Source: a virus
Lineage: Duplodnaviria > Caudoviricetes
IMG/VR virus record: IMGVR_UViG_3300037400_004297
Span: 1 to 64,000 of that record
Strand: one strand, 5' to 3'
DNA: 64,000 nucleotides
The stretch's first letter is position 1. Every line of letters begins with the position of its first letter. Both the position numbers and the translations under genes were made by a program. Shown piece after piece: positions 2,127 through 15,435 of the stretch. Below the pieces are notes generated by a model. That model was not told the DNA's origin. It made no database searches and was given only the letters and a program-made list of their open reading frames with translations.

Positions 2127-4629
2127 TTATACGATTTAATATGTCGTTGAATTTTTTAGATTCGGCTTTTAAACCAGCAGCCTCTCTGTCAGCAATGCCG
2201 CCTATCTTGTCTTTAGCACTTGTTATAATGTTGTTAACAATAAGTTCCATACCAATTTTCTCAGCATGCTCATGTGACTCAGAAAGTCTGTTTGCAAATA
2301 TTTCTTTTGCTTCATGATATGTGGTCATTTTATTACTAATGCCACGTTTCTGGTTGGCATTATCCATGTCGAATGAATCTGTATTGTCTCCATGAACTTC
2401 AACTAATACGTATAGTTCCCCAACATTTTCATTTTTAGGTTCATAGCACATTCTGCAAAGATAACAGTCCATTTTTATTGGCATACCTTCATCGTCCAAC
2501 ACGTCTCCGTGTCTTCCACAAGGGCATTTATAATAAAGTCTTTTTTTCAGTGTAGGACCGTTTTTGTCGAACATATCAGTATATTGTTCAGGATTTGTTG
2601 TTTCACTATCATTTACATATGGTTTAGGGTTGTATTTAACATGTATACCGTCGCCTGTTTTGTGTAAAGGTACAAGTTGTTTAGAACCGTCATATTCCCC
2701 TTTACCACGTTCACTTTTATCTCTCACGATGTAGTTTAATTTTCTTCCTGTAGGTACGTATGTATCCTCTAGTCTATTATATAGTTCAGAACTAACCGCA
2801 AAGAATCTTCTTGCAATTGCACCAGAAGAGCCGCCAGTATCATCTGCACCAAGTGTTCCAACATTCATTGTAGATGCATTAATGATTATATTCTTAATTT
2901 TAGTGAAGTTAAGGTTTCTACAAGTATATGCTGCCGTGCTTATGCCTACTAATTTTAAATCACCAACAAACTCATCGAAAGCATCCAAAAGCCATTGACC
3001 TATGAAGTCCCCCTCTTCATTAAGTCTTATAAATTTAGCTCTAAATGCATTAGGTGTGTTCTTTATAACATTAAGGTCTTGTTTATCGAATATGTCTGCA
3101 AAATTATTTGAATAAATTAACATAGAAAGATTTTCTCTTGCTCCTTTAGGCTTAGATAAAGGTTTGTTAGGGCCTATTTTTCTCACAGCTTCATCTATAT
3201 ATTCATTTAACACCCTTCCAAGAAGTGACCTATTTTCTCCCATATTATCATCATTATTATTAGGCTTTTTTGCTTTCCAATTTGGTTCTGATAGGATGTT
3301 ATTTTTTGAAGGCGTGCCAAGTCTGTTGAATAGTCCTTTTAATGGCGTTAGATTGTCTTGGCTATTAAGTTTTTTAAACCATTTTTGTGATGTTTTCGGG
3401 TTTTCAAGAAGTGCTCCAGCCATATTCCCTGGATTAATAAGATGCATCTTTATGACCTTGAACATTGCAGCGAGAAGGTCTGGGTCTTTATGGGCTGTCT
3501 GCCACATCATATGAAGGTTAGAGTTCTTTTTGTGAAGGCCTTCATAGTTATGTTCAGAACCCCTTGCGTAACAAGCATAACCAACAAGGCATTCATTCCA
3601 GGCAGGGCATCTGTGTGCTGTTGTAAAGTTTATAACAAGTGTATCTTCAGGAAGTTTAGAGTTACCATATGTATACATAGCAGTAGGCATCTTAAACTCA
3701 TACCCGAATTTACTGTTAAGCATTTTATTGAACATAGCTTTAAAGTATAGGTTCTTAAGGTCTGCAAGTGCTTTCTTATCACCATTCTTTGCCATATCAG
3801 CCATTTCGCCATATGTAGGGTTATGTTTTTCGTCTTCGAAATGGTGACCTTGTCTTGTTCCAGTTTTGAAATATCTGAATATTTCTTCATCAGATACGTT
3901 TGTAAGGTCTAGATTTTCAATATCATAACCAACGACCTTATTGGCAGGCATAAATTGCCTTGTTGTTTCACCTTTTTTGTTCTTCTTCTCTGGAGTATCT
4001 TCTGGCTTTGTGTTCATAAGAGTTTCTTCGGTGTCATACACATAGTTACCGTTTTCATCTTTTTTAACAGAGCCATCGTCATTTGTAAGTGGTTTCAAGG
4101 TTCTGTAGTTAGTACCAAATGGAGTATAGTTTATACCAGCATCCTTAGCTCTTGATTGGTCATAAGCTGGGGTTAATGAGAACTTATCTGCCATATCTAA
4201 ATACCTTCTTAAGCCACTATAGCCACCGTATTTCTTCATAATCTCTTTTTTTCTATCAGACGGCGTGCTAGGATTAGTCCACTCATTATAATCCATTAAA
4301 GCCTGTTTTAGTTCCCCACTCATAGTTCCAACTGCTTTCTCATATGAACCTTTTACATCGTCCCTATTAAGAATAGCATCTGCTTCTGCTTTACGTTGTG
4401 TATTTTTATCTAGATTTATACCAATATTTTTAGCAGTATTAGAAAAAGTCTCTTTTTCGTCATTTGTAAGACTATCGTAATATTTTTGGAAAGTGTTACC
4501 AAGCTCTCTTTTAGCTGCTTTTGTTGAGGATGAATCTCCTTTTATTTTTTCATTGAGAATGTTTGCATTTGTTCCATGAAACATTTCATTAACAACGTCT
4601 TTTATGAATATATCTATATTTTTTTCCAT
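2116..4629 (-). CDS. Large Gp88-like (Fe-S/radical-SAM-like) domain protein with long N-terminal extension
   Basis: GNSKL...RCPAWNECLVGYACYA, FIRLNEEGDF, AYTCR and C-terminal CPC...CYLCRMC match my recollection of the Gp88-family motif order. Confidence 0.5.
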   Translation of the reverse strand: MEKNIDIFIKDVVNEMFHGTNANILNEKIKGDSSSTKAAKRELGNTFQKYYDSLTNDEKETFSNTAKNIGINLDKNTQRKAEADAILNRDDVKGSYEKAVGTMSGELKQALMDYNEWTNPSTPSDRKKEIMKKYGGYSGLRRYLDMADKFSLTPAYDQSRAKDAGINYTPFGTNYRTLKPLTNDDGSVKKDENGNYVYDTEETLMNTKPEDTPEKKNKKGETTRQFMPANKVVGYDIENLDLTNVSDEEIFRYFKTGTRQGHHFEDEKHNPTYGEMADMAKNGDKKALADLKNLYFKAMFNKMLNSKFGYEFKMPTAMYTYGNSKLPEDTLVINFTTAHRCPAWNECLVGYACYARGSEHNYEGLHKKNSNLHMMWQTAHKDPDLLAAMFKVIKMHLINPGNMAGALLENPKTSQKWFKKLNSQDNLTPLKGLFNRLGTPSKNNILSEPNWKAKKPNNNDDNMGENRSLLGRVLNEYIDEAVRKIGPNKPLSKPKGARENLSMLIYSNNFADIFDKQDLNVIKNTPNAFRAKFIRLNEEGDFIGQWLLDAFDEFVGDLKLVGISTAAYTCRNLNFTKIKNIIINASTMNVGTLGADDTGGSSGAIARRFFAVSSELYNRLEDTYVPTGRKLNYIVRDKSERGKGEYDGSKQLVPLHKTGDGIHVKYNPKPYVNDSETTNPEQYTDMFDKNGPTLKKRLYYKCPCGRHGDVLDDEGMPIKMDCYLCRMCYEPKNENVGELYVLVEVHGDNTDSFDMDNANQKRGISNKMTTYHEAKEIFANRLSESHEHAEKIGMELIVNNIITSAKDKIGGIADREAAGLKAESKKFNDILNRIIKG

Positions 4630-7235: not shown

Positions 7236-8387
7236 ATGGTTTTAACAGAAGATATGAAATCACTGTTCCGCACAGTGAGAACACTACTTGGTGCTCCTAT
7301 TAGAATTGTTCAATTGGAGGATGAACAGCTTTGTGACCTTCTCGATGTTGCTATAGGTGACTACTCAGAGAAGGTACAGAACTGGGTTCTTGAGACCCAG
7401 TGGCTTAACATACAGAGCAAGGGACAGATACAGTTCCAGAACGCCAATGAGCTTGCGTATGCAATGACCGTTCGTACAATGGACTGGTCTCGTGACTATT
7501 CATACTGGTTCTCACGTGAGGTTGGACTACAACAGAGAGGTAATTATGAACTAAAGAAGGACTTCTTTCAGGTTGAAAGGGGCAAGCAAGTTTATGTCAT
7601 TCCAGCAGGAAGGGAGATAAATAAGGTAATGTATGTAACTCCATCAACCACAAAGGCAGCACTCTACGGAAACCTTGGCACTCTTGATACTGGTATTGGC
7701 GGTGGATTCGGACAATACGGTAACATGGGTAACGGTATGGGTCTTACAGGATTCTATGTTGGTTCAGCATATGATACTGCACTTATGGCAGCAGACCTTA
7801 AGTATAAAAACTCACTTCTCAGGGGTGATTTAGCTTATAAGGTGACAGCAGGACCTAATGGAACACACCTTGTACACCTTATGTCAACTCCTGGCTCTCC
7901 AAATATGGTTGGCGGTGTATCTGCCGATGATACCTGGGGATGGAATAGGTATGCAAGCTGTTATGTGTGGTATACCTATTATGATGTATCTGGTTCAGAT
8001 GATGCAGCAGACCTTTGCATGCTTGAGAACAAGGATGATGTGATAATCACACCAGACCAAGTTCCATTGGATAAAATGAAGTATGAACTGATGAACAATC
8101 CTACACAACAAATTATAAGAAGGCTATTGGTTGCAGAGGCTAAGATATTGCTTGGTATTATAAGAGGTACGTATAGCGGTACTGTGAAGATACCTGATGC
8201 GGAAATGCAGATGGATTATAATATGCTTCTTGACCAAGGAAAGAGTGAAAAGGAGACAGTGCTTAATGAGTTGAAGGAGAGGCTTGAGAGGATGTTACCT
8301 TGGAATCTGATTAAGAACCAGGTGGACATGAATGATAGTCTCATAAAGGTATTGAAGAATAAGCCACTTGGATTGTTTGTGAGATAA
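7236..8387 (+). CDS. Putative neck protein (T4 gp13-like)
   Basis: LGAPIRIVQLEDEQL..L..A N-terminus and AEAKILLGIIRG...MDYNMLLDQG C-terminus, typical of large-myovirus neck proteins. Confidence 0.7.
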   Translation: MVLTEDMKSLFRTVRTLLGAPIRIVQLEDEQLCDLLDVAIGDYSEKVQNWVLETQWLNIQSKGQIQFQNANELAYAMTVRTMDWSRDYSYWFSREVGLQQRGNYELKKDFFQVERGKQVYVIPAGREINKVMYVTPSTTKAALYGNLGTLDTGIGGGFGQYGNMGNGMGLTGFYVGSAYDTALMAADLKYKNSLLRGDLAYKVTAGPNGTHLVHLMSTPGSPNMVGGVSADDTWGWNRYASCYVWYTYYDVSGSDDAADLCMLENKDDVIITPDQVPLDKMKYELMNNPTQQIIRRLLVAEAKILLGIIRGTYSGTVKIPDAEMQMDYNMLLDQGKSEKETVLNELKERLERMLPWNLIKNQVDMNDSLIKVLKNKPLGLFVR

Positions 8388-9283
8388 TGAAAGTAGATAA
8401 TAAACTTGTAGAGAGTGTTGTTAGAGAGGTAATATTGGAATATGGCGGGGTATCAGACGAAATACTGAATCTCGCAAATAAGATATTTTCTGAAATAACA
8501 TCTGATTATAATGGTTACATGTACGACTGGAGACCTGTGGATTATTACATGGGGCTTGATGGTTGTGACCTTGTGAAAAGAATGCCATTACAGTTTGATA
8601 ATAATGAATATGTTGATGAGGTAAATATACGACTTTTTGGATATTATTCAAGGAAGACAAATTTCAATGAAGCTTTGAATTATCTTAAATCAAAGGGACT
8701 TGCTGGAGTATCTTATTCTTACAGTAGAAAAATGGTTAAACTTTTTATACCTTATCCAACAGATGGCAACTTACCTGATGATGTTAAGACGTGGCTTATA
8801 TCTAGTCTAAACCACGAAATAAAACATGGGCTACAGTTTGTAAAACAGTCACATGCTTTAGGCAAGAAAGGTAGACAGTATGCATTCGACAAAAATTATG
8901 ATGCGTCTGTATCTGACACTAACCAAAGTGAATTTGGTGATGATACAGGTACTGCTGAATGGATAAAGCGTTGCTACTATACATTGTGCTATGATGAAAT
9001 AGATGCAAGGTTGCAGTCTTTATATGTGGAATATTCTAAATATGGTGATTTAAATAAGTGTGAATCGTATAAGGATGTTAGATATGCCACACAAATGTAT
9101 CAAATGCTGTTAATGACAATGATAAAGCCAGAGCTTAGTAAGAGATTTGATTATCTTGTTAGGAAGATTTTTGATAACAGATTGAATGCAAAATCTTTCC
9201 TTAAACTTTGCCAGAGAGGTGTAAACAGGTTTAATGAACACATGAGAAGGATAGTTGGAAGGGTTAATATTGAGAGAAAATAA
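8387..9283 (+). CDS. Hypothetical protein with HExxH motif (possible Zn metallopeptidase)
   Basis: LNHEIKHG plus downstream DEIDARL glutamate. Confidence 0.5.
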   Translation: MKVDNKLVESVVREVILEYGGVSDEILNLANKIFSEITSDYNGYMYDWRPVDYYMGLDGCDLVKRMPLQFDNNEYVDEVNIRLFGYYSRKTNFNEALNYLKSKGLAGVSYSYSRKMVKLFIPYPTDGNLPDDVKTWLISSLNHEIKHGLQFVKQSHALGKKGRQYAFDKNYDASVSDTNQSEFGDDTGTAEWIKRCYYTLCYDEIDARLQSLYVEYSKYGDLNKCESYKDVRYATQMYQMLLMTMIKPELSKRFDYLVRKIFDNRLNAKSFLKLCQRGVNRFNEHMRRIVGRVNIERK

Positions 9284-9328
9284 TCGGGATAAATCTTGTT
9301 TATCTCGATTTTTTTATATATCTTTGCA
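9282..9328 (+). promoter_or_regulatory. Terminator hairpin fused to Bacteroidota promoter
   Basis: aatcgggataaa-tcttg-tttatctcgatt hairpin, T-tract, then TATCTTTG. Confidence 0.75.
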
Positions 9329-9349
9329 TATATTAATATTTTTTAACAT

Positions 9350-10789
9350 ATGAGTGAGAATTTAACAAATGGTAAATTTTTAGAGAATCTATATAAGCGA
9401 TTTCCAGATATTAAGTATGATTTTTCAGAAGCCGAATATATTGATAGTAAAACGCACATGAAAGTTATATGTCACGAAAAAGATTGTAATGGTATTGAGC
9501 ATGGAAGCTGGATGATAAGGCCATACAATCTGTATAGTGGATATGGATGTCCTAAATGTGCAGCCGAAAAACATAGACAGGAACGTAGAATGCCATATGA
9601 ACAGTATTGCAAGTTAGTATCAGAAAAGTATGGTGACGTATATGAAGTGGATAAAACATCTTACGAAGATAAGTTCAATAGATTAAAAATATTGTGTAAG
9701 AAGCATAATAAATATTTTGAAACGAATAGCAGGTTATTCCCAAGATTTAATTCACATAAATGTCCTGATTGTATTAAGGAAGATTTGGAGTGTAGTGGTG
9801 TAGATAGCAGTTTATCTACTGCGAATGACATCAATAGTTTTGATGATGAAGTGTGGGTTGATATACCAGGCTTTGAAGGAAAATATCAATGCAGTTCTGA
9901 AGGAAGATTTAGAAGAATAAATAGAAAGAATAGAGTTGGTAATAAAATTAGCGATTTAATTCTTAAAGTTAATTTTACAAGGAGAGCTGGTCAGATATCT
10001 CTAGACGGTAAAACCTATGTTGCTCATAGAATCATATATGAAACATTTCATAAAGTTAATCTAATAAGTGGATACACTTCTACAATAGACCATATAGATA
10101 ATAATGTTAGGAACAACAGAATTTCAAATTTGAGACTTGGTGGCACTATAAGTGAGAATATGTTAAATAACAAGCTTACTATTGCTAGACTATCAGCAAG
10201 AGGTGGGGCTGTTGGTATTTCACCTATATTTGATTTTGAAAAATTGGAAGGGGAAAAATGGGTTGATATAATAGGTTATGAAGATTCTTATATGGTTTCT
10301 AATTTTGGTAGGGTTGTAGCAAAAGATAGAACTCTTGTTGAAAAAAACACTGGTAAGAAGAGACTTAAGAAAGGACATCTAATGCGTCAAGCAATTAAAT
10401 ATGGACAATATTATACAGTTGGGCTTGTAGATGGTAATAGAATACGTAAGACACATTATACTCATAGATTGGTTTATGAAAGCTTTAATGGTAGAATAAA
10501 AGAAGGAAACCAAGTAGACCATATAGATTCCAATTCGTTAAACAATAGATTGGATAATCTTAGAGAAACAAGTCCTTTAGAAAATGTTAGAAATCCTAAT
10601 TCTTTATCTAAAAGAACTATACAAGTTAGGAAAGTGAATTTGCTTGGTGAAACATTGGCTATTTATGATTCTATTAAAGAAGCTGGCATAAAAAATAATA
10701 TTAAACCTGGATTAATTTCAAGATGGCTTAATGAAAATAATAGGCAGAAAAATAATAAGTTGAGGGGGTTTTATTTAATTAAAGTATAA
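9350..10789 (+). CDS. HNH homing endonuclease with tandem NUMOD4-HNH units and N-terminal Zn-binding repeats
   Basis: Two NUMOD4 motifs (WVDIPGFEGKY, WVDIIGYEDSY), two HNH motifs (DHIDNNVRNNRISNL, DHIDSNSLNNRLDNL), GCPKC and CPDC. Confidence 0.85.
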   Translation: MSENLTNGKFLENLYKRFPDIKYDFSEAEYIDSKTHMKVICHEKDCNGIEHGSWMIRPYNLYSGYGCPKCAAEKHRQERRMPYEQYCKLVSEKYGDVYEVDKTSYEDKFNRLKILCKKHNKYFETNSRLFPRFNSHKCPDCIKEDLECSGVDSSLSTANDINSFDDEVWVDIPGFEGKYQCSSEGRFRRINRKNRVGNKISDLILKVNFTRRAGQISLDGKTYVAHRIIYETFHKVNLISGYTSTIDHIDNNVRNNRISNLRLGGTISENMLNNKLTIARLSARGGAVGISPIFDFEKLEGEKWVDIIGYEDSYMVSNFGRVVAKDRTLVEKNTGKKRLKKGHLMRQAIKYGQYYTVGLVDGNRIRKTHYTHRLVYESFNGRIKEGNQVDHIDSNSLNNRLDNLRETSPLENVRNPNSLSKRTIQVRKVNLLGETLAIYDSIKEAGIKNNIKPGLISRWLNENNRQKNNKLRGFYLIKV

Positions 10790-10906
10790 ATAATATAAAC
10801 ATGGGATAAGTTATATTATTCAAAGAAGGAAATGTTAAATGATATAAAACATTATTCATATTTTAAGAATCTGGAGGAAATGTTGTGTGAGGCTAGCACT
10901 AAATAA

Positions 10907-10962
10907 TGTTAAATAATCGGGGTAATGTTTGGTTATCTCGATTTTTTTATGTATCTTTGCAC
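10907..10962 (+). repeat. 56-bp direct repeat copy A (terminator-promoter cassette) left of the IscB module
   Basis: 53/56 identical to 12729-12784; contains tttg (10928-10931) and TATCTTTG (10952-10959). Confidence 0.9.
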
Positions 10963-10963
10963 C

Positions 10964-11140
10964 AACTAATCTGGTATGATTAGCTTAAGCCCTTCGAGGG
11001 CTACGTTGAGGGAGAATATATAGGCACTTTGGAGTTGTTACCCAAGCCCCAAACCATGCGGCTAGCGAGAATGTCTTTCTAGTGAAAACCTCCAACCAAC
11101 ATTAGCGATGGGTACACAACGTCATTTATTTGACGGTTTA
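10964..11140 (+). ncRNA. IscB omegaRNA scaffold lacking a cis guide; tracrRNA-like, with 5' anti-repeat at 10964-10980
   Basis: OmegaRNA-like motifs TAGCTTAAG-[agccct-tcg-agggct]-CTACGTT, GAATATATAGGCAC, AACC..AACATTAGCGATGGGT; possible pseudoknot tacccA/tgggta; 3' hairpin cgtca-tttatt-tgacg. The first 17 nt are complementary to the array repeat. Confidence 0.85.
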
Positions 11141-11162
11141 CAACATTTTTAAATTAAAAGCA

Positions 11163-12437
11163 ATGGTTTATGTATTAAACAAGGATGGCAAACCCATAAT
11201 GCCAACGACAAGACACGGAAAAGTTAGGAGGCTTTTGAAGGAAGGGAAAGCCCACGTGGTTTCTACCGTTCCTTTTACAATCCAGCTTGACTATATTTCT
11301 GGTGAGAACCTACAAGAAATAAATCTTGGGGTTGACACTGGTTCTAGGTACATAGGCTTGTCTGCATCTACATCTTCTAAGGAGCTTTATGCTGCGCAGG
11401 TAGAACTTCGTAGTAAAGAGATTCCAGACCTTATTCTTTCTAGGCGTGAGTCTAGAAGAACTAGACGCAACAGAAAAACTAGGTACAGAAAGCCACGTTT
11501 TGATAATAGGAAAAGACCAAATGGCTGGTTAACTCCTACATCAAGAAACAGATTTGATGAACATATGAAAGCTATTCAGCGTGTCTATAAAATTCTACCT
11601 GTTTCTAACATAACCATTGAGATTGCTCCGTTTGATATCCAGAAACTAAAGAATCCAGGGATTCAAGGTGAAGAGTACCAACATGGTGAGTTGTTTGGTT
11701 TTGAAAACGCCAGAGAATACGCTTTAATTAGGGATAGGCACGAGTGCCAGCATTGTCACGGTAAAAGTGGATGCAAAACACTTCACGTACACCATATTCA
11801 ATACAGGTCACAAGGCGGTACTGATGCAGTTGGAAATCTTATCACATTGTGTGAGGATTGCCATAATAAACTACATAATGGTGAATTTGAACTTAACTTA
11901 AAAAAGATTACTAGCTTCAAAAACCAAACATCAGTATCGACAATCGGTAAACCTGTGTTCTGGAAGGCAAAGGAACTGTATGGTAATGTTAAGACTACGT
12001 ATGGCTACATAACCAAAACTAACCGCTTAAGGGGTGGAATTGAGAAGTCCCATACTAGTGATGCATTTGTTATGGCTGGCAACTTGAATGCTGACAGGTT
12101 TGGTGGATTCTACCAGTATAAGCTTAACAGAAGACATACTAGGTCTCTACATAAGCAACTTCCAAAGAAAGGTGGCATACGAGCAGCAACCACTGCCACC
12201 CATACAATAGGTAATAGTGGCTTGCAGAAGGGAGATTTGGTTCTCTGGAATGGGATGAAGTGCTTTATTAGTGGAAGCTCACATAATAGGCTATACTTGA
12301 AAGATATTAATGGTAATCTTCTGACAAGAAAACAAAATGATAACGGTAAGATGATATCTTTTACTGTAAGAACTGCTGATGTGAAATTCCTAAGAAGGAT
12401 GCACGGGAGTCATTTGCTCCAGTTTACTCGTGAATAA
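11163..12437 (+). CDS. iscB: IscB RNA-guided endonuclease (PLMP/RRXRR, split RuvC, bridge helix, HNH)
   Basis: MVYVLNKDGKPIMP; RuvC-I LGVDTGS; RRESRRTRRNRKTRYRKPRFDNR; RuvC-II ITIEIAPFD; HNH CQHC..HVHHI..GGTD..NLITLCEDCHNKLH; RuvC-III KSHTSDA. Start placed at ATG 11163 (424 aa). Confidence 0.95.
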   Translation: MVYVLNKDGKPIMPTTRHGKVRRLLKEGKAHVVSTVPFTIQLDYISGENLQEINLGVDTGSRYIGLSASTSSKELYAAQVELRSKEIPDLILSRRESRRTRRNRKTRYRKPRFDNRKRPNGWLTPTSRNRFDEHMKAIQRVYKILPVSNITIEIAPFDIQKLKNPGIQGEEYQHGELFGFENAREYALIRDRHECQHCHGKSGCKTLHVHHIQYRSQGGTDAVGNLITLCEDCHNKLHNGEFELNLKKITSFKNQTSVSTIGKPVFWKAKELYGNVKTTYGYITKTNRLRGGIEKSHTSDAFVMAGNLNADRFGGFYQYKLNRRHTRSLHKQLPKKGGIRAATTATHTIGNSGLQKGDLVLWNGMKCFISGSSHNRLYLKDINGNLLTRKQNDNGKMISFTVRTADVKFLRRMHGSHLLQFTRE

Positions 12438-12488
12438 GAGATAAGTGGAGTTTTTAATCATTTCGTCGATTCTTTGTTCAAAATATGC

Positions 12489-12722
12489 ATTGTATCAGAT
12501 TAGTTTTTAATATTATTAGATTTCTGGAATCGGTATTTATCGTAGACTTACCCACCCTTTATATATAATGATGAGTCAGGTTCTGAATGATTAATTGTAT
12601 CAGATTAGTTTTTTATATTATTAGATTTCTGGAAAAAGAGATATATCAATAATAACGCTGCCAATTGTATCAGATTAGTTTTTTATACCAGAACACACAT
12701 ATGAAATTGTATCAGATTAGTT
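12489..12722 (+). CRISPR. Degenerate CRISPR-like mini-array, 4 repeats with core ATTGTATCAGATTAGTT
   Basis: R1 12489-12529 and R2 12594-12634 (41 bp, 1 mismatch), R3 12664-12687 (24 bp), R4 12706-12722 (17 bp). Unique intervening sequences of 64, 29 and 18 nt. Confidence 0.8.
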
Positions 12723-12728
12723 AATTTT

Positions 12729-12784
12729 TGTTAAATAATCGAGGTAATGTTTGGTTATCTCGATTTTTTTATGTAATTTTGCAC
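12729..12784 (+). repeat. 56-bp direct repeat copy B (terminator for IscB/array, promoter for the next cassette)
   Basis: aatcgaggtaa-tgtttgg-ttatctcgatt hairpin + T7 + TAATTTTG; 53/56 identical to 10907-10962. Confidence 0.9.
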
Positions 12785-12799
12785 TCGAAATAATAAAAT

Positions 12800-13075
12800 G
12801 TGTACGTTATGACAAGAGAACAAGCTAAACAGATTCTTCTCAAGAGCATTGAGAAGGAGATAAAAAAATATGGTGAGGATACTGTCGCAGTGATGTCACC
12901 TATGCCAGGCAAGAACTTCTGGACATATAAAGAGTATAAGGATGCTGTTATTAATGACACTGACCTTGATGGCTGTGAGGATTCTAATCCTATCGATTCT
13001 CTTATCAGGTATGATGAATATCGTTTGGAGCGTGGCATGGAGAGTATGGTTGATAAGTTTTTAAAGGAGAAGTAA
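12800..13075 (+). CDS. Hypothetical protein
   Basis: 91-aa ORF directly after the promoter cassette. Confidence 0.6.
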   Translation: MYVMTREQAKQILLKSIEKEIKKYGEDTVAVMSPMPGKNFWTYKEYKDAVINDTDLDGCEDSNPIDSLIRYDEYRLERGMESMVDKFLKEK

Positions 13076-13076
13076 T

Positions 13077-13379
13077 ATGAGTAATTTGATGATTCTAATT
13101 CTAGTATGGGTAGTAGGCATTATTATTACCTTATTCATTCTCTATAAACAAAATGATAAGATAACACTTAGCGATGCACTATTGGTGCTGTTCTTCTGGT
13201 GGTTTTATTTAATATTCTTCATCAGTATGTGGTTGACCGTATGTGTTGAATGGATTTATGATAACACCAGGGACATAGTATTATTTGAGAAGAAGAAAGC
13301 CCCAAGGTGTAACAAGAAAACAAAGTTCCAGGAAACTATGGATAAACTGGAGAAACAAGTTGAAAATTTTAAAAAGTAA
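13077..13379 (+). CDS. Hypothetical membrane protein
   Basis: Two hydrophobic segments followed by a basic C-terminus. Confidence 0.6.
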   Translation: MSNLMILILVWVVGIIITLFILYKQNDKITLSDALLVLFFWWFYLIFFISMWLTVCVEWIYDNTRDIVLFEKKKAPRCNKKTKFQETMDKLEKQVENFKK

Positions 13380-13398
13380 CATTATAACATTTTAAACA

Positions 13399-15435
13399 AT
13401 GAAAAAGCTTTTATGGATTATGTGTGCAATGCTGGTCGGTATGTCAGCATATGCAAGTGAGACTAACGACACCATTATTAACAAGTCACTTGACGAGTTT
13501 ACGGTAACGTCGTTCTATCGTAGTTCCACCCCAATTCTGGGTAGCACTTTGAATTCACAGTCATTGATTTCTGCAAACTATGGTCAAGAGCCTTCTTGGC
13601 TGTTAGCAAACATGCCTTCCATCTTTGCATTCAGTGACAATGGTACTGATTTCGGTTATGGCTATTTCCGTATTCGTGGACTTGACCAGACTAGAATAAA
13701 TGTAACTCTTGATGGAATGCCTTGGAATGAGGCTGAGGATTTTGGCTGTTATTTCGCTAATAGCCCTGATATTTTAGCAGACGCTGGCAGTGTTGAAGTT
13801 GGACGTGGTACAAGCACCTATAACCCTGGTACTGCATCGTATGGTGGAAGTGTAAACATTAACTCTGTTGACCTCAAAAAGGACACTGAATCATATGCAA
13901 TGTTTGGTGGTGGTAGTTTTGCATCATTTAAGACATCTGTCAATATTAATACAGGTCTTATGGGTAAGTGGGCTATGCATGTACGTGCAACAATGTCAGA
14001 AACTGATGGCTATCGTGAGCATAGTTCAAATAAATCTAAGTCACTTGGCTTTAAGCTTGGTTATTTCATTAATGATAAGAGTTCAATTGACCTGCTGTCA
14101 ATCACTGGATATCACAAGAACGGACAGGGATATATTGGTGGCACAATGGAGGAGCTTGCGAAGAATCGTAAGATGAATGGCTGTAGTGAATATGAGGACG
14201 ATAATTTCTTCCAGACGGTAAATAAGCTTACCTATAATAGTTGGTTTGGTGATAAGGTATTGTTTACATCTTCATTGTATTGGAGTATGCTTCGTGGAGA
14301 GTATCGTTTTGATTTAGACAATTATCTGTTGCGAATGGAGGATTTTCCAGCGCAAACTGGCATGGTGTATAACTATGGGCTTATTCACCACAGCTATGGT
14401 GGTAATGCAGCAGCACGTTATTACATCAACGACGGCTCAATTACATTAGGTACTAACATCTATAAGTTCGAGCGTGAGCATTATCTTGATGACCGTAATG
14501 TTGATAAGGCTAAGAATATCACACCTGCTGACTACTATGACAATCGTGGACATAAGATGAGCTATGAGGCATTCATTAATGCGAAGAAGTCATTTGGCAA
14601 TTTCACACTGTCTGCTAATGTTCAATATCGTGGTGTTAAGTTCTGGTATGTTGACCTTATGAATCCATTAGTTAACTTTGATGAGAATACAACTTGGAAC
14701 TTCATTAATTTTGGTGCTGATGCAAGTTATAAGATTGGAAGTCATAATGAGTTATATCTGAAGTACGCACGTGCTCACCGTGAACCGACACGTACAGATA
14801 TGTTTGGTGGAAATGAATGGTATGTTGGTTCACTTACAACAACAGATGCTGAGGTTTCAAATGATATTGAATTTGGTTGGAATATTGCTGCAAAGAAGAT
14901 TAATGCTAATGTAAACCTGTTTGGAATGTTCTTTGAGAACGAGCGTTCACTTACTGGTACACTTGGTTTAAACGGTCTTCCTGAGCATGAGAAGGCTGAT
15001 AACAGTCATCGTATGGGTATTGAGTTATTCGTTGATTATGAGCCTTTTAGTAAGTTCCATATCGTTAATAACTCGTCTTTCTCTAATAATAAGGTAAAGA
15101 CTGAGACCTATGGAACTAAAAGTCATGTATTAACTCCTAATTGTACGTTCAACCAGGCGTTTGAGTGGCGTGATAACAAGTGGAGTGCTGGGGTAGAGTG
15201 GAAATATCGTAGTCATATGTACATTGATATGGCAAATGAGTTCCGTGTCCCTGACCTGTGGCAGCTTAATCTCTATGGTAGTGTTACCCTTGGCAATTTC
15301 ATCGTCAGTGGGCATGTTAATAACATTACCAATCGTGACAATATGCAGACAGGTGTGCTAACCAATACCAACAAGGCACGTTTCATGCCTGATGCGCCAA
15401 CTAACGTGTTTGCTTCGGTGAAGTACATGTTCTAA
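13399..15435 (+). CDS. TonB-dependent outer-membrane receptor (Bacteroidota vitamin-uptake type)
   Basis: Signal peptide; LDEFTVTS TonB-box-like; plug motifs FRIRGLDQTRINVTLDGMP and GRGTS..G..GGSVNI; C-terminal NNITNR...PTNVFASVKYMF ending in aromatic F. Confidence 0.9.
   Translation: MKKLLWIMCAMLVGMSAYASETNDTIINKSLDEFTVTSFYRSSTPILGSTLNSQSLISANYGQEPSWLLANMPSIFAFSDNGTDFGYGYFRIRGLDQTRINVTLDGMPWNEAEDFGCYFANSPDILADAGSVEVGRGTSTYNPGTASYGGSVNINSVDLKKDTESYAMFGGGSFASFKTSVNINTGLMGKWAMHVRATMSETDGYREHSSNKSKSLGFKLGYFINDKSSIDLLSITGYHKNGQGYIGGTMEELAKNRKMNGCSEYEDDNFFQTVNKLTYNSWFGDKVLFTSSLYWSMLRGEYRFDLDNYLLRMEDFPAQTGMVYNYGLIHHSYGGNAAARYYINDGSITLGTNIYKFEREHYLDDRNVDKAKNITPADYYDNRGHKMSYEAFINAKKSFGNFTLSANVQYRGVKFWYVDLMNPLVNFDENTTWNFINFGADASYKIGSHNELYLKYARAHREPTRTDMFGGNEWYVGSLTTTDAEVSNDIEFGWNIAAKKINANVNLFGMFFENERSLTGTLGLNGLPEHEKADNSHRMGIELFVDYEPFSKFHIVNNSSFSNNKVKTETYGTKSHVLTPNCTFNQAFEWRDNKWSAGVEWKYRSHMYIDMANEFRVPDLWQLNLYGSVTLGNFIVSGHVNNITNRDNMQTGVLTNTNKARFMPDAPTNVFASVKYMF

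Follow-up and report, generated by a model that had tools for sequence, protein, structure and literature searches.

A megaphage-borne IscB whose omegaRNA is probably split into a tracr-like scaffold and guide–repeat units supplied in trans

IscB nucleases associated with CRISPR arrays were reportedly described by Altae-Tran et al. in 2021. In systems of this kind an anti-repeat in the noncoding RNA pairs with the repeats of the adjacent array; DelIscB, which has been engineered (Zhang et al. 2025), carries its array upstream of the open reading frame (ORF), in the same noncoding RNA region as the scaffold, and truncation of its repeat/anti-repeat hairpin yields a single guide (PMC12660989, PMC11610941, PMC10734217). 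The DelIscB guide is 16 nucleotides (nt) long (PMC12660989), and the protein reportedly shares only 28% identity with OgeuIscB. The locus considered here lies in a 64,000-nt stretch of viral DNA (IMG/VR record IMGVR_UViG_3300037400_004297), called the window, to which all coordinates refer; as a lineage name, the same word denotes the copy studied here. Between 10928 and 12772 the window carries one compact plus-strand unit composed of a promoter, a scaffold RNA, iscB, four short repeats and a terminator, and this IscB cassette is borne by a huge phage (megaphage) of the cattle rumen. It probably specifies an IscB whose omegaRNA has been split into a scaffold that resembles tracrRNA (the trans-activating CRISPR RNA) and a set of guide+repeat units that act in trans. 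The split is supported by the covariation of repeat and anti-repeat, by the rapid turnover of the candidate guides, and by an anti-repeat that is homologous to the first stem's 3′ strand in one-piece omegaRNAs.

The repeat is present as four exact 17-nt copies on the plus strand, beginning at 12489, 12594, 12664 and 12706, and as an inverted copy with three mismatches at 10964–10980, the 5′ end of the scaffold RNA. These five matches compare with 0.67 expected, and none of 100 shuffled sequences reached five. Read as plus-strand RNA, repeat and anti-repeat pair at 17 of 17 positions (14 Watson–Crick and three G–U), exactly as the original prediction had it for the first 17 nt of the scaffold, and the duplex energy is −17.7 kcal/mol, versus −3.7 ± 1.8 kcal/mol for shuffled repeats. 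Such pairing between array repeats and an anti-repeat with which the scaffold RNA opens is the mark of a CRISPR-associated IscB. The array is of another kind, however: in place of regular repeats adjacent to and upstream of the scaffold, the copies lie downstream of iscB, and their start-to-start spacing is irregular (105, 70 and 42 nt in the window; 35 to ~180 nt in relatives). Across the family the repeats measure 15–18 nt and the spacers 13–164 nt. Each array unit can be read as a U-tract, a variable filler, a guide of ~16–20 nt and the 17-nt repeat. The shorter spacers of the family (18–25 nt) leave at most ~19 nt of guide after the T-tract, and the candidate guide of ~19 nt in the fourth unit of the window is in the range of the 16-nt DelIscB guide (PMC12660989).

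The anti-repeat opens a shortened, tracr-like omegaRNA scaffold (10964–11140, plus strand). Directly upstream of iscB, the Rfam model of the IscB omegaRNA, HEARO (RF02033), matches positions 10969–11120 with 52.5 bits (E = 4.5e-9). The score falls short of the gathering threshold (83) owing to two shortened stem-loops, a later hairpin and, mainly, the first one, in which the closing pairs enclose 46 nt in the HEARO model and 6 nt here. In the HEARO alignments of the one-piece relatives, the RNA opens with an 8-bp stem whose 3′ strand immediately precedes the conserved UAGC strand of the pseudoknot. The window keeps this junction between stem and UAGC, and upstream of it only the anti-repeat remains. 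With the 5′ strand of the first stem and the inner hairpins missing, the scaffold is not a one-piece omegaRNA with a guide in cis. With the anti-repeat equivalent to the 3′ strand of the first stem, the repeat is the counterpart of its 5′ strand, which directly follows the guide in the OgeuIscB structures of IscB–omegaRNA complexes. The same repeat/anti-repeat duplex is described for DelIscB (PMC12660989). Moreover, with the −7 promoter box ending 5 nt upstream of the anti-repeat, a cis guide would have no room on the scaffold if transcription starts where predicted. The scaffold core is almost invariant across eight lineages, with compensatory changes in two hairpins: a C–G versus U–A pair in the first hairpin, which sets the window apart from all other lineages (alignment columns 27/37), and GUC/GAC versus ACC/GGU in the 3′ hairpin of L002/L149 (alignment columns 159–172).

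The intact iscB gene (11163–12437, plus strand) encodes 424 amino acids with the architecture of an IscB: an N-terminal PLMP/RRXRR domain followed by a RuvC domain that is interrupted by HNH (Pfam RRXRR, E = 2e-62; HNH, E = 1.4e-10). IscB structures (OgeuIscB) match at E ~1e-56. Cas9-type chains match the RuvC/HNH core only, at E = 1e-12 or weaker. In an alignment to the IscB chain 11hr_A, the RuvC-I aspartate (D58), the HNH histidines H210 and H211, the RuvC-II glutamate and the HxxD motif are all conserved; these are the residues that, from what is known of OgeuIscB, we take to be catalytic. The reading frame is intact in every lineage of the clade, at identities of 79 to 100%.

Relatives were sought in IMG/VR, in the JGI metagenomes and in a collection of 5.8 billion proteins. 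The searches returned a narrow clade at 79% identity or more, followed by a gap down to 56% or less, on contigs of up to 412 kb. All members come from cattle or rumen samples, and they recur in many samples and contigs. In an unrooted tree the clade is monophyletic (100/100 support) on a long branch of 0.92, and it appears to be nested inside the one-piece IscBs. The species genomes of bacteria and archaea hold IscB copies only at 57% identity or less, often several per genome, as expected for insertion sequence (IS) elements. The distant relatives that were tested with HEARO (L003, L004, L025 and L052) all have a full one-piece RNA, with 116–140 bits. At the distant loci examined, no downstream repeats complementary to the upstream region were present, the lone exception being an unrelated tandem 12-mer in L039.

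Within the clade, the same layout is found in at least six related lineages (L001, L002/L149, L085, L155, L087/L157) with differing repeat and anti-repeat sequences. The repeat is present four times in the window, seven times in L001, three times in L002, three or four times in L149, nine times in L085, seven to nine times in L155, ten times in L087 and eight or nine times in L157. Averaged over all copies of an array, the duplex energy with the cognate anti-repeat is −14.8 to −19.9 kcal/mol, versus mostly −4 to −15 kcal/mol with non-cognate ones. Of the 720 possible pairings of six arrays with six anti-repeats, no other scores as well as the cognate one (−103; mean −64); this permutation test, run in Python, replaced the formal counting of pairs in an alignment, where MAFFT misaligned the array ends. 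Individual positions have changed on both sides. Repeat position 10 and anti-repeat position 8 form G–C in the window and U–A in L001, and repeat position 8 and anti-repeat position 10 form C–G in the window and U–A in L002. The 18-nt repeat of L001 has a single bulged base, which is also its one variable base. Wherever a non-Watson–Crick pair has become fixed throughout an array, it is G–U, a pattern that makes sense only for plus-strand RNA. A broader statement, that every non-Watson–Crick pair is G–U, was withdrawn, since A–C mismatches occur in single repeat copies. Co-folding of the scaffold with one guide+repeat unit gives the trans duplex in five of five lineages, with a free-energy difference (ddG) of −14 to −20 kcal/mol. 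Thus both the co-folding and the covariation proposed earlier as checks on the pairing came out in its favor: the sequences differ between lineages and match within them.

The candidate guides have turned over far more than the protein. L147 and L148, from other samples, encode an IscB identical to that of the window and carry the four units of the window plus one extra unit, a 32-nt spacer and a repeat, between units 3 and 4. The sister pairs L002/L149, L085/L155 and L087/L157 have their repeats in common and almost none of their guides; one diverged guide is common to L087 and L157, and no spacer is shared between lineages. The expectation that related phages would keep the layout with different spacers is therefore borne out in at least six lineages. 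Such differences between near-identical phages argue that array units are gained and lost much faster than the protein changes.

All elements of the cassette were found where the original prediction had placed them. Its Bacteroidota-type promoter, read from the sequence (10928–10959, plus strand), consists of a −33 box TTTG at 10928–10931, a 20-nt spacer and a −7 box TAnnTTTG at 10952–10959. The consensus of Bacteroides promoters and their distance from box to start site place the predicted start of transcription at about 10964–10966, and the same −7 box lies ~4–10 nt upstream of the anti-repeat in every lineage. The array comprises unit 1 (12469–12505), with a candidate guide in about the last 16–20 nt before 12489 and its repeat at 12489–12505; unit 2 (12574–12610), with a candidate guide and the repeat at 12594–12610; unit 3 (12644–12680), with a candidate guide and the repeat at 12664–12680, directly after which the extra unit of L147 and L148 is found; and unit 4 (12687–12722), in which a 25-nt spacer made up of a T-tract and a candidate guide of ~19 nt precedes the last repeat at 12706–12722. 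All four units lie on the plus strand, as does the closing terminator (12737–12772, hairpin 12737–12765), which is followed by the promoter of the next gene within a module spanning 12722–12784. No terminator is predicted between the promoter and the end of the array in the window cassette. Within the arrays TAnnTTTG is not enriched (six found, 5.0 expected), which favors one transcript from promoter to terminator that would then be processed.

A single promoter would accordingly start transcription at the anti-repeat, and the transcript would probably span the scaffold, iscB and the array up to the closing terminator before it is processed. The repeat would be the former 5′ strand of the first omegaRNA stem, which follows the guide directly in one-piece RNAs, and by pairing with the 5′ end of the scaffold it would rebuild that stem in trans, as a CRISPR RNA (crRNA) does with tracrRNA. 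IscB may then bind the two-RNA complex and cut DNA that matches the guide next to a target-adjacent motif (TAM). The array would offer several guides, four here and 3–10 in relatives, and these would change quickly between near-identical phages without cas1 or tnpA. A likely use would be against competing mobile elements or host DNA. A fuller proposal can be offered tentatively, as something possible rather than probable: a Cas1/Cas2-independent, fast-evolving, multi-guide IscB system of rumen megaphages that cuts rival phages or host DNA, and whose units are gained and lost by a route that yields irregular spacers.

Several observations weigh against a split omegaRNA. The start site, the processing and the loading of the RNAs are predictions from sequence. 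No protospacer was found for any guide in any of the sets searched, and all matches were at chance level. Every spacer was compared by BLAST with the 76.6-kb contig of the window and with all retrieved loci, whole arrays were compared with GenBank phages, and the window array was compared with four related megaphage records (two of them rated complete), in each case without a target. Six exact 18-mer scans of IMG/VR gave none, nor did a comparison of a five-unit array with 401 genomes of the family of a rumen Prevotellaceae metagenome-assembled genome. The chance-level matches fell in a tape-measure-like ORF, in unrelated VapE and SLT proteins, in collagen-like repeats and in AT-rich stretches, and one was a self-match. 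Since the guides are ~16 nt long and no TAM is known, large databases cannot tell true matches from chance, and the failure to find targets is the weakest point of the case for function. As for the pairing, some single repeat copies carry A–C or A–A mismatches, and L147 combines a window-type array with an L002-type anti-repeat, which leaves one C–A mismatch in the duplex. The L085 array pairs better with the anti-repeat of L155 than with its own: the L085 anti-repeat has A at position 8, and four of its repeats carry the matching U while five retain an A, the partner of the U in the sister lineage L155. L085 looks as though it has been caught in mid-change between two pairings. Finally, the 5′ end of the scaffold can fold into a weak cis hairpin of 4–6 bp, a competitor of the trans duplex that is displaced in the co-folds and is the lowest-energy fold of the lone scaffold in two of five lineages.

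Covariation proves pairing only, and the repeats could instead be regulatory RNA sites whose partner is the 5′ end of their own transcript or of a different one, controlling the stability or translation of iscB or soaking up the scaffold, with IscB guided in some other way or not at all. That scaffold and array are probably on one transcript, and that no putative guide has a target, would fit such a role. Regulation has no need, however, of 3–10 copies that each follow a unique, rapidly replaced sequence, and it leaves a scaffold that starts at the anti-repeat with no other source of a guide. Regulatory sites also sit poorly with the finding that the repeat is the exact counterpart of the strand that follows the guide in one-piece omegaRNAs, and with a conserved IscB whose catalytic residues are intact; we consider them unlikely. 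An explanation at the level of DNA, in which the cassette moves by way of 17-nt copies that serve as recombination sites or terminal inverted repeats, its two ends co-evolving through one binding protein, seems more doubtful still. The positions at which non-Watson–Crick pairs are fixed across an array are all G–U and never A–C, the left copy belongs to the omegaRNA structure, and internal copies with unique spacers would have no role. It is true that inverted copies at 10964–10980 and 12706–12722 bound the cassette exactly, that the cassette is missing from otherwise syntenic phages and occupies another site in the 412-kb phages, and that concerted evolution of the ends would also resemble covariation. 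Yet the cassette encodes no transposase or recombinase, no Y1 transposase was found in the genomes examined, and neighboring cassettes have the same terminator–promoter borders without such repeats. To our knowledge, IS200/IS605 elements do not use terminal inverted repeats.

It is very improbable that the locus is a decaying remnant, in which IscB has lost the 5′ part of its omegaRNA and the repeats are debris of past rearrangements. A scaffold core that is nearly invariant apart from compensatory changes, and a repeat and anti-repeat that covary, are not what decay would leave; the reading frame is intact in every lineage at 79 to 100% identity, and the clade persists across many samples and contigs. 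Set against these are the HEARO score below the gathering threshold, the irregular spacing of the repeats and the degeneracy of some repeat copies. A split omegaRNA with trans-acting guide+repeat units remains the probable reading.

The cassette resembles canonical OMEGA IscB with its one-piece omegaRNA (HEARO RF02033; OgeuIscB, PDB 7UTN/7XHT) in its PLMP/RRXRR domain, its split RuvC and its HNH domain, and in the omegaRNA core that precedes the gene, with the pseudoknot strand and the central hairpins. The upstream RNA differs in lacking the guide, the inner hairpins and the first stem's 5′ strand, with guides that would come in trans from the array, and the cassette differs in the absence of TnpA and of multi-copy IS behavior. 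With the CRISPR-associated IscBs it has in common a nuclease of IscB size, a first omegaRNA stem converted to a repeat/anti-repeat duplex, short guides, and no need for adaptation genes at the locus. Unlike that of DelIscB, the megaphage array follows the gene, at a distance of ~1.5 kb from the anti-repeat. It also departs from the published arrays, which are described as CRISPR arrays, in having mini-repeats that comprise only the pairing strand, with irregular spacers; and the clade is phage-borne, with OgeuIscB-type proteins as its closest solved relatives. That relationship, together with the 28% identity between DelIscB and OgeuIscB, makes an origin independent of DelIscB-type systems likely, DelIscB being compared here by its reported identity.

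As in type II Cas9, including the compact II-D Cas9d, guide+repeat pairs with the 5′ anti-repeat of a structured scaffold, and there are several guides per locus. A type II system would have a Cas9 with a recognition (REC) lobe together with cas1 and cas2; the 424-residue protein has no REC lobe, the array is not regular, csn2 is absent, and no Cas1 was found (Cas2 was not searched separately). The original prediction had seen in the locus a candidate intermediate between IscB and Cas9. This view is not upheld: the proteins form a separate, long-branched clade of 424–425-residue IscBs, their nearest relatives are at most 56% identical and, where examined, carry one-piece omegaRNAs, and Cas9 matches the RuvC/HNH core only. 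The separate branch argues that the split occurred in parallel to that of Cas9. The label CRISPR likewise does not fit repeats of 15–18 nt with irregular spacers of 13–164 nt and no sign of construction by Cas1–Cas2. An analogous split has been published for TranC, reported as intermediates between TnpB and Cas12 with a functionally split omegaRNA (cited in PMC13565253; bioRxiv 10.64898/2026.03.27.714800). TranC is similar in that the one-piece guide RNA of a transposon is split into tracr-like and cr-like RNAs, and that this reportedly arose more than once; it differs in belonging to the TnpB/Cas12 family and in having the guide at the 3′ end.

Whether the arrangement had been described before was left as a question by the original prediction. 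Literature searches did not find a description of a scaffold, iscB and downstream array in this order, the 2021 report of CRISPR-associated IscBs being covered through the papers that cite it. The principle of an IscB with repeat and anti-repeat, for its part, is already published. The differences here are the array on the far side of the gene, the mini-repeats, the irregular spacers, the megaphage carrier and, probably, the independent origin.

No Y1 transposase (PF01797) was found in the window's own contig (G000) or in the related genomes G001 and G002, and no Cas1 was found in the same three (Cas2 was not searched separately); the earlier claim that tnpA, cas1 and cas2 are missing nearby thus stands for the first two. 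Each of these three genomes has one IscB, unlike the multi-copy, TnpA-linked context of IS200/IS605 elements, and the repeats are confined to the IscB locus. CheckV rates G002, a 412-kb genome and the same phage as L002, as 100% complete.

A gp13-like gene and a TonB-receptor gene flank the cassette in the window, L001, L085, L087 and L155; in L157 gp13 stands before it and a different gene after it, and in the 412-kb phages it lies ~125 kb away, near a gene of the poly(A)-polymerase family. It is absent from the phages L101, L142 and L105–107, which have the synteny from gp13 to the receptor. These IscB-free loci match no guide, and homing of the cassette into an empty site was rejected. The stretch from gp13 to the TonB receptor (8387–13400 in the window; L098–L146) is a variable island in rumen phages of ~410 kb, whose content differs from genome to genome and in which a terminator-plus-promoter module marks the border of each cassette. 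Immediately upstream of the IscB cassette, 9350–10789 encodes a 479-residue homing-endonuclease-like protein with NUMOD4 and HNH_3 domains, and a copy that is 62–63% identical occupies the same place in the IscB-free L101 and L142. Downstream, 13399–15435 encodes a TonB-dependent receptor (Plug domain). A peptide-pattern scan of 185,579 species genomes for a host with a close relative of this receptor found none. Of the earlier description as a Bacteroidota phage, the phage-borne nature holds, and the promoter type, as the sole evidence, makes a Bacteroidota host plausible.

The unit of the homing-endonuclease-like gene ends at a terminator hairpin and T-run (10915–10949, plus strand), the 12-pair hairpin of which (10915–10943) overlaps the promoter of the cassette. 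The 63-nt direct repeats that flank the cassette (10900–10962 and 12722–12784) are 90% identical and occur just twice in the window. They were considered as a target-site duplication, and this was rejected: they are ordinary intergenic terminator-plus-promoter modules that also border unrelated genes. L001 has three modules of this type, and in the syntenic, IscB-free phage L101 the same module stands in the same place before an unrelated small gene.

Some further features of the relatives may be recorded. L147 also has an L002-type upstream flank (L147:500–2500), and would result either from natural recombination at the cassette or from chimeric assembly. A solitary 18-nt repeat-like copy, with the extra base seen in L001, lies at L002:2683–2700, outside the array and ~100 nt upstream of the cassette promoter. 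L149 has a further repeat copy at 4067–4083, beyond the array terminator, where the next gene's promoter immediately precedes it and leaves no space for a guide. L091 encodes the same IscB as L087 and diverges from it 63 nt after the stop codon (L091:1579–1960), running into an unrelated minus-strand gene, which reflects either a different context or an assembly break.

If the fuller proposal held, the locus would be an independent, living replay of the step by which an omegaRNA gave rise to crRNA and tracrRNA, and its 424-residue nuclease would be naturally programmable by a short trans RNA of ~35 nt. If the split is real, the locus would provide a nuclease of that size that accepts short trans guides with a 17-nt handle, and would add IscB to the RNA-guided nucleases of huge phages. 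The irregular array raises the question of how new guides arise without Cas1–Cas2. For the IscB family, it would mean that the one-piece guide RNA has been split more than once, here in a virus without adaptation genes, and the locus would thus bear on the origin of tracrRNA and crRNA.

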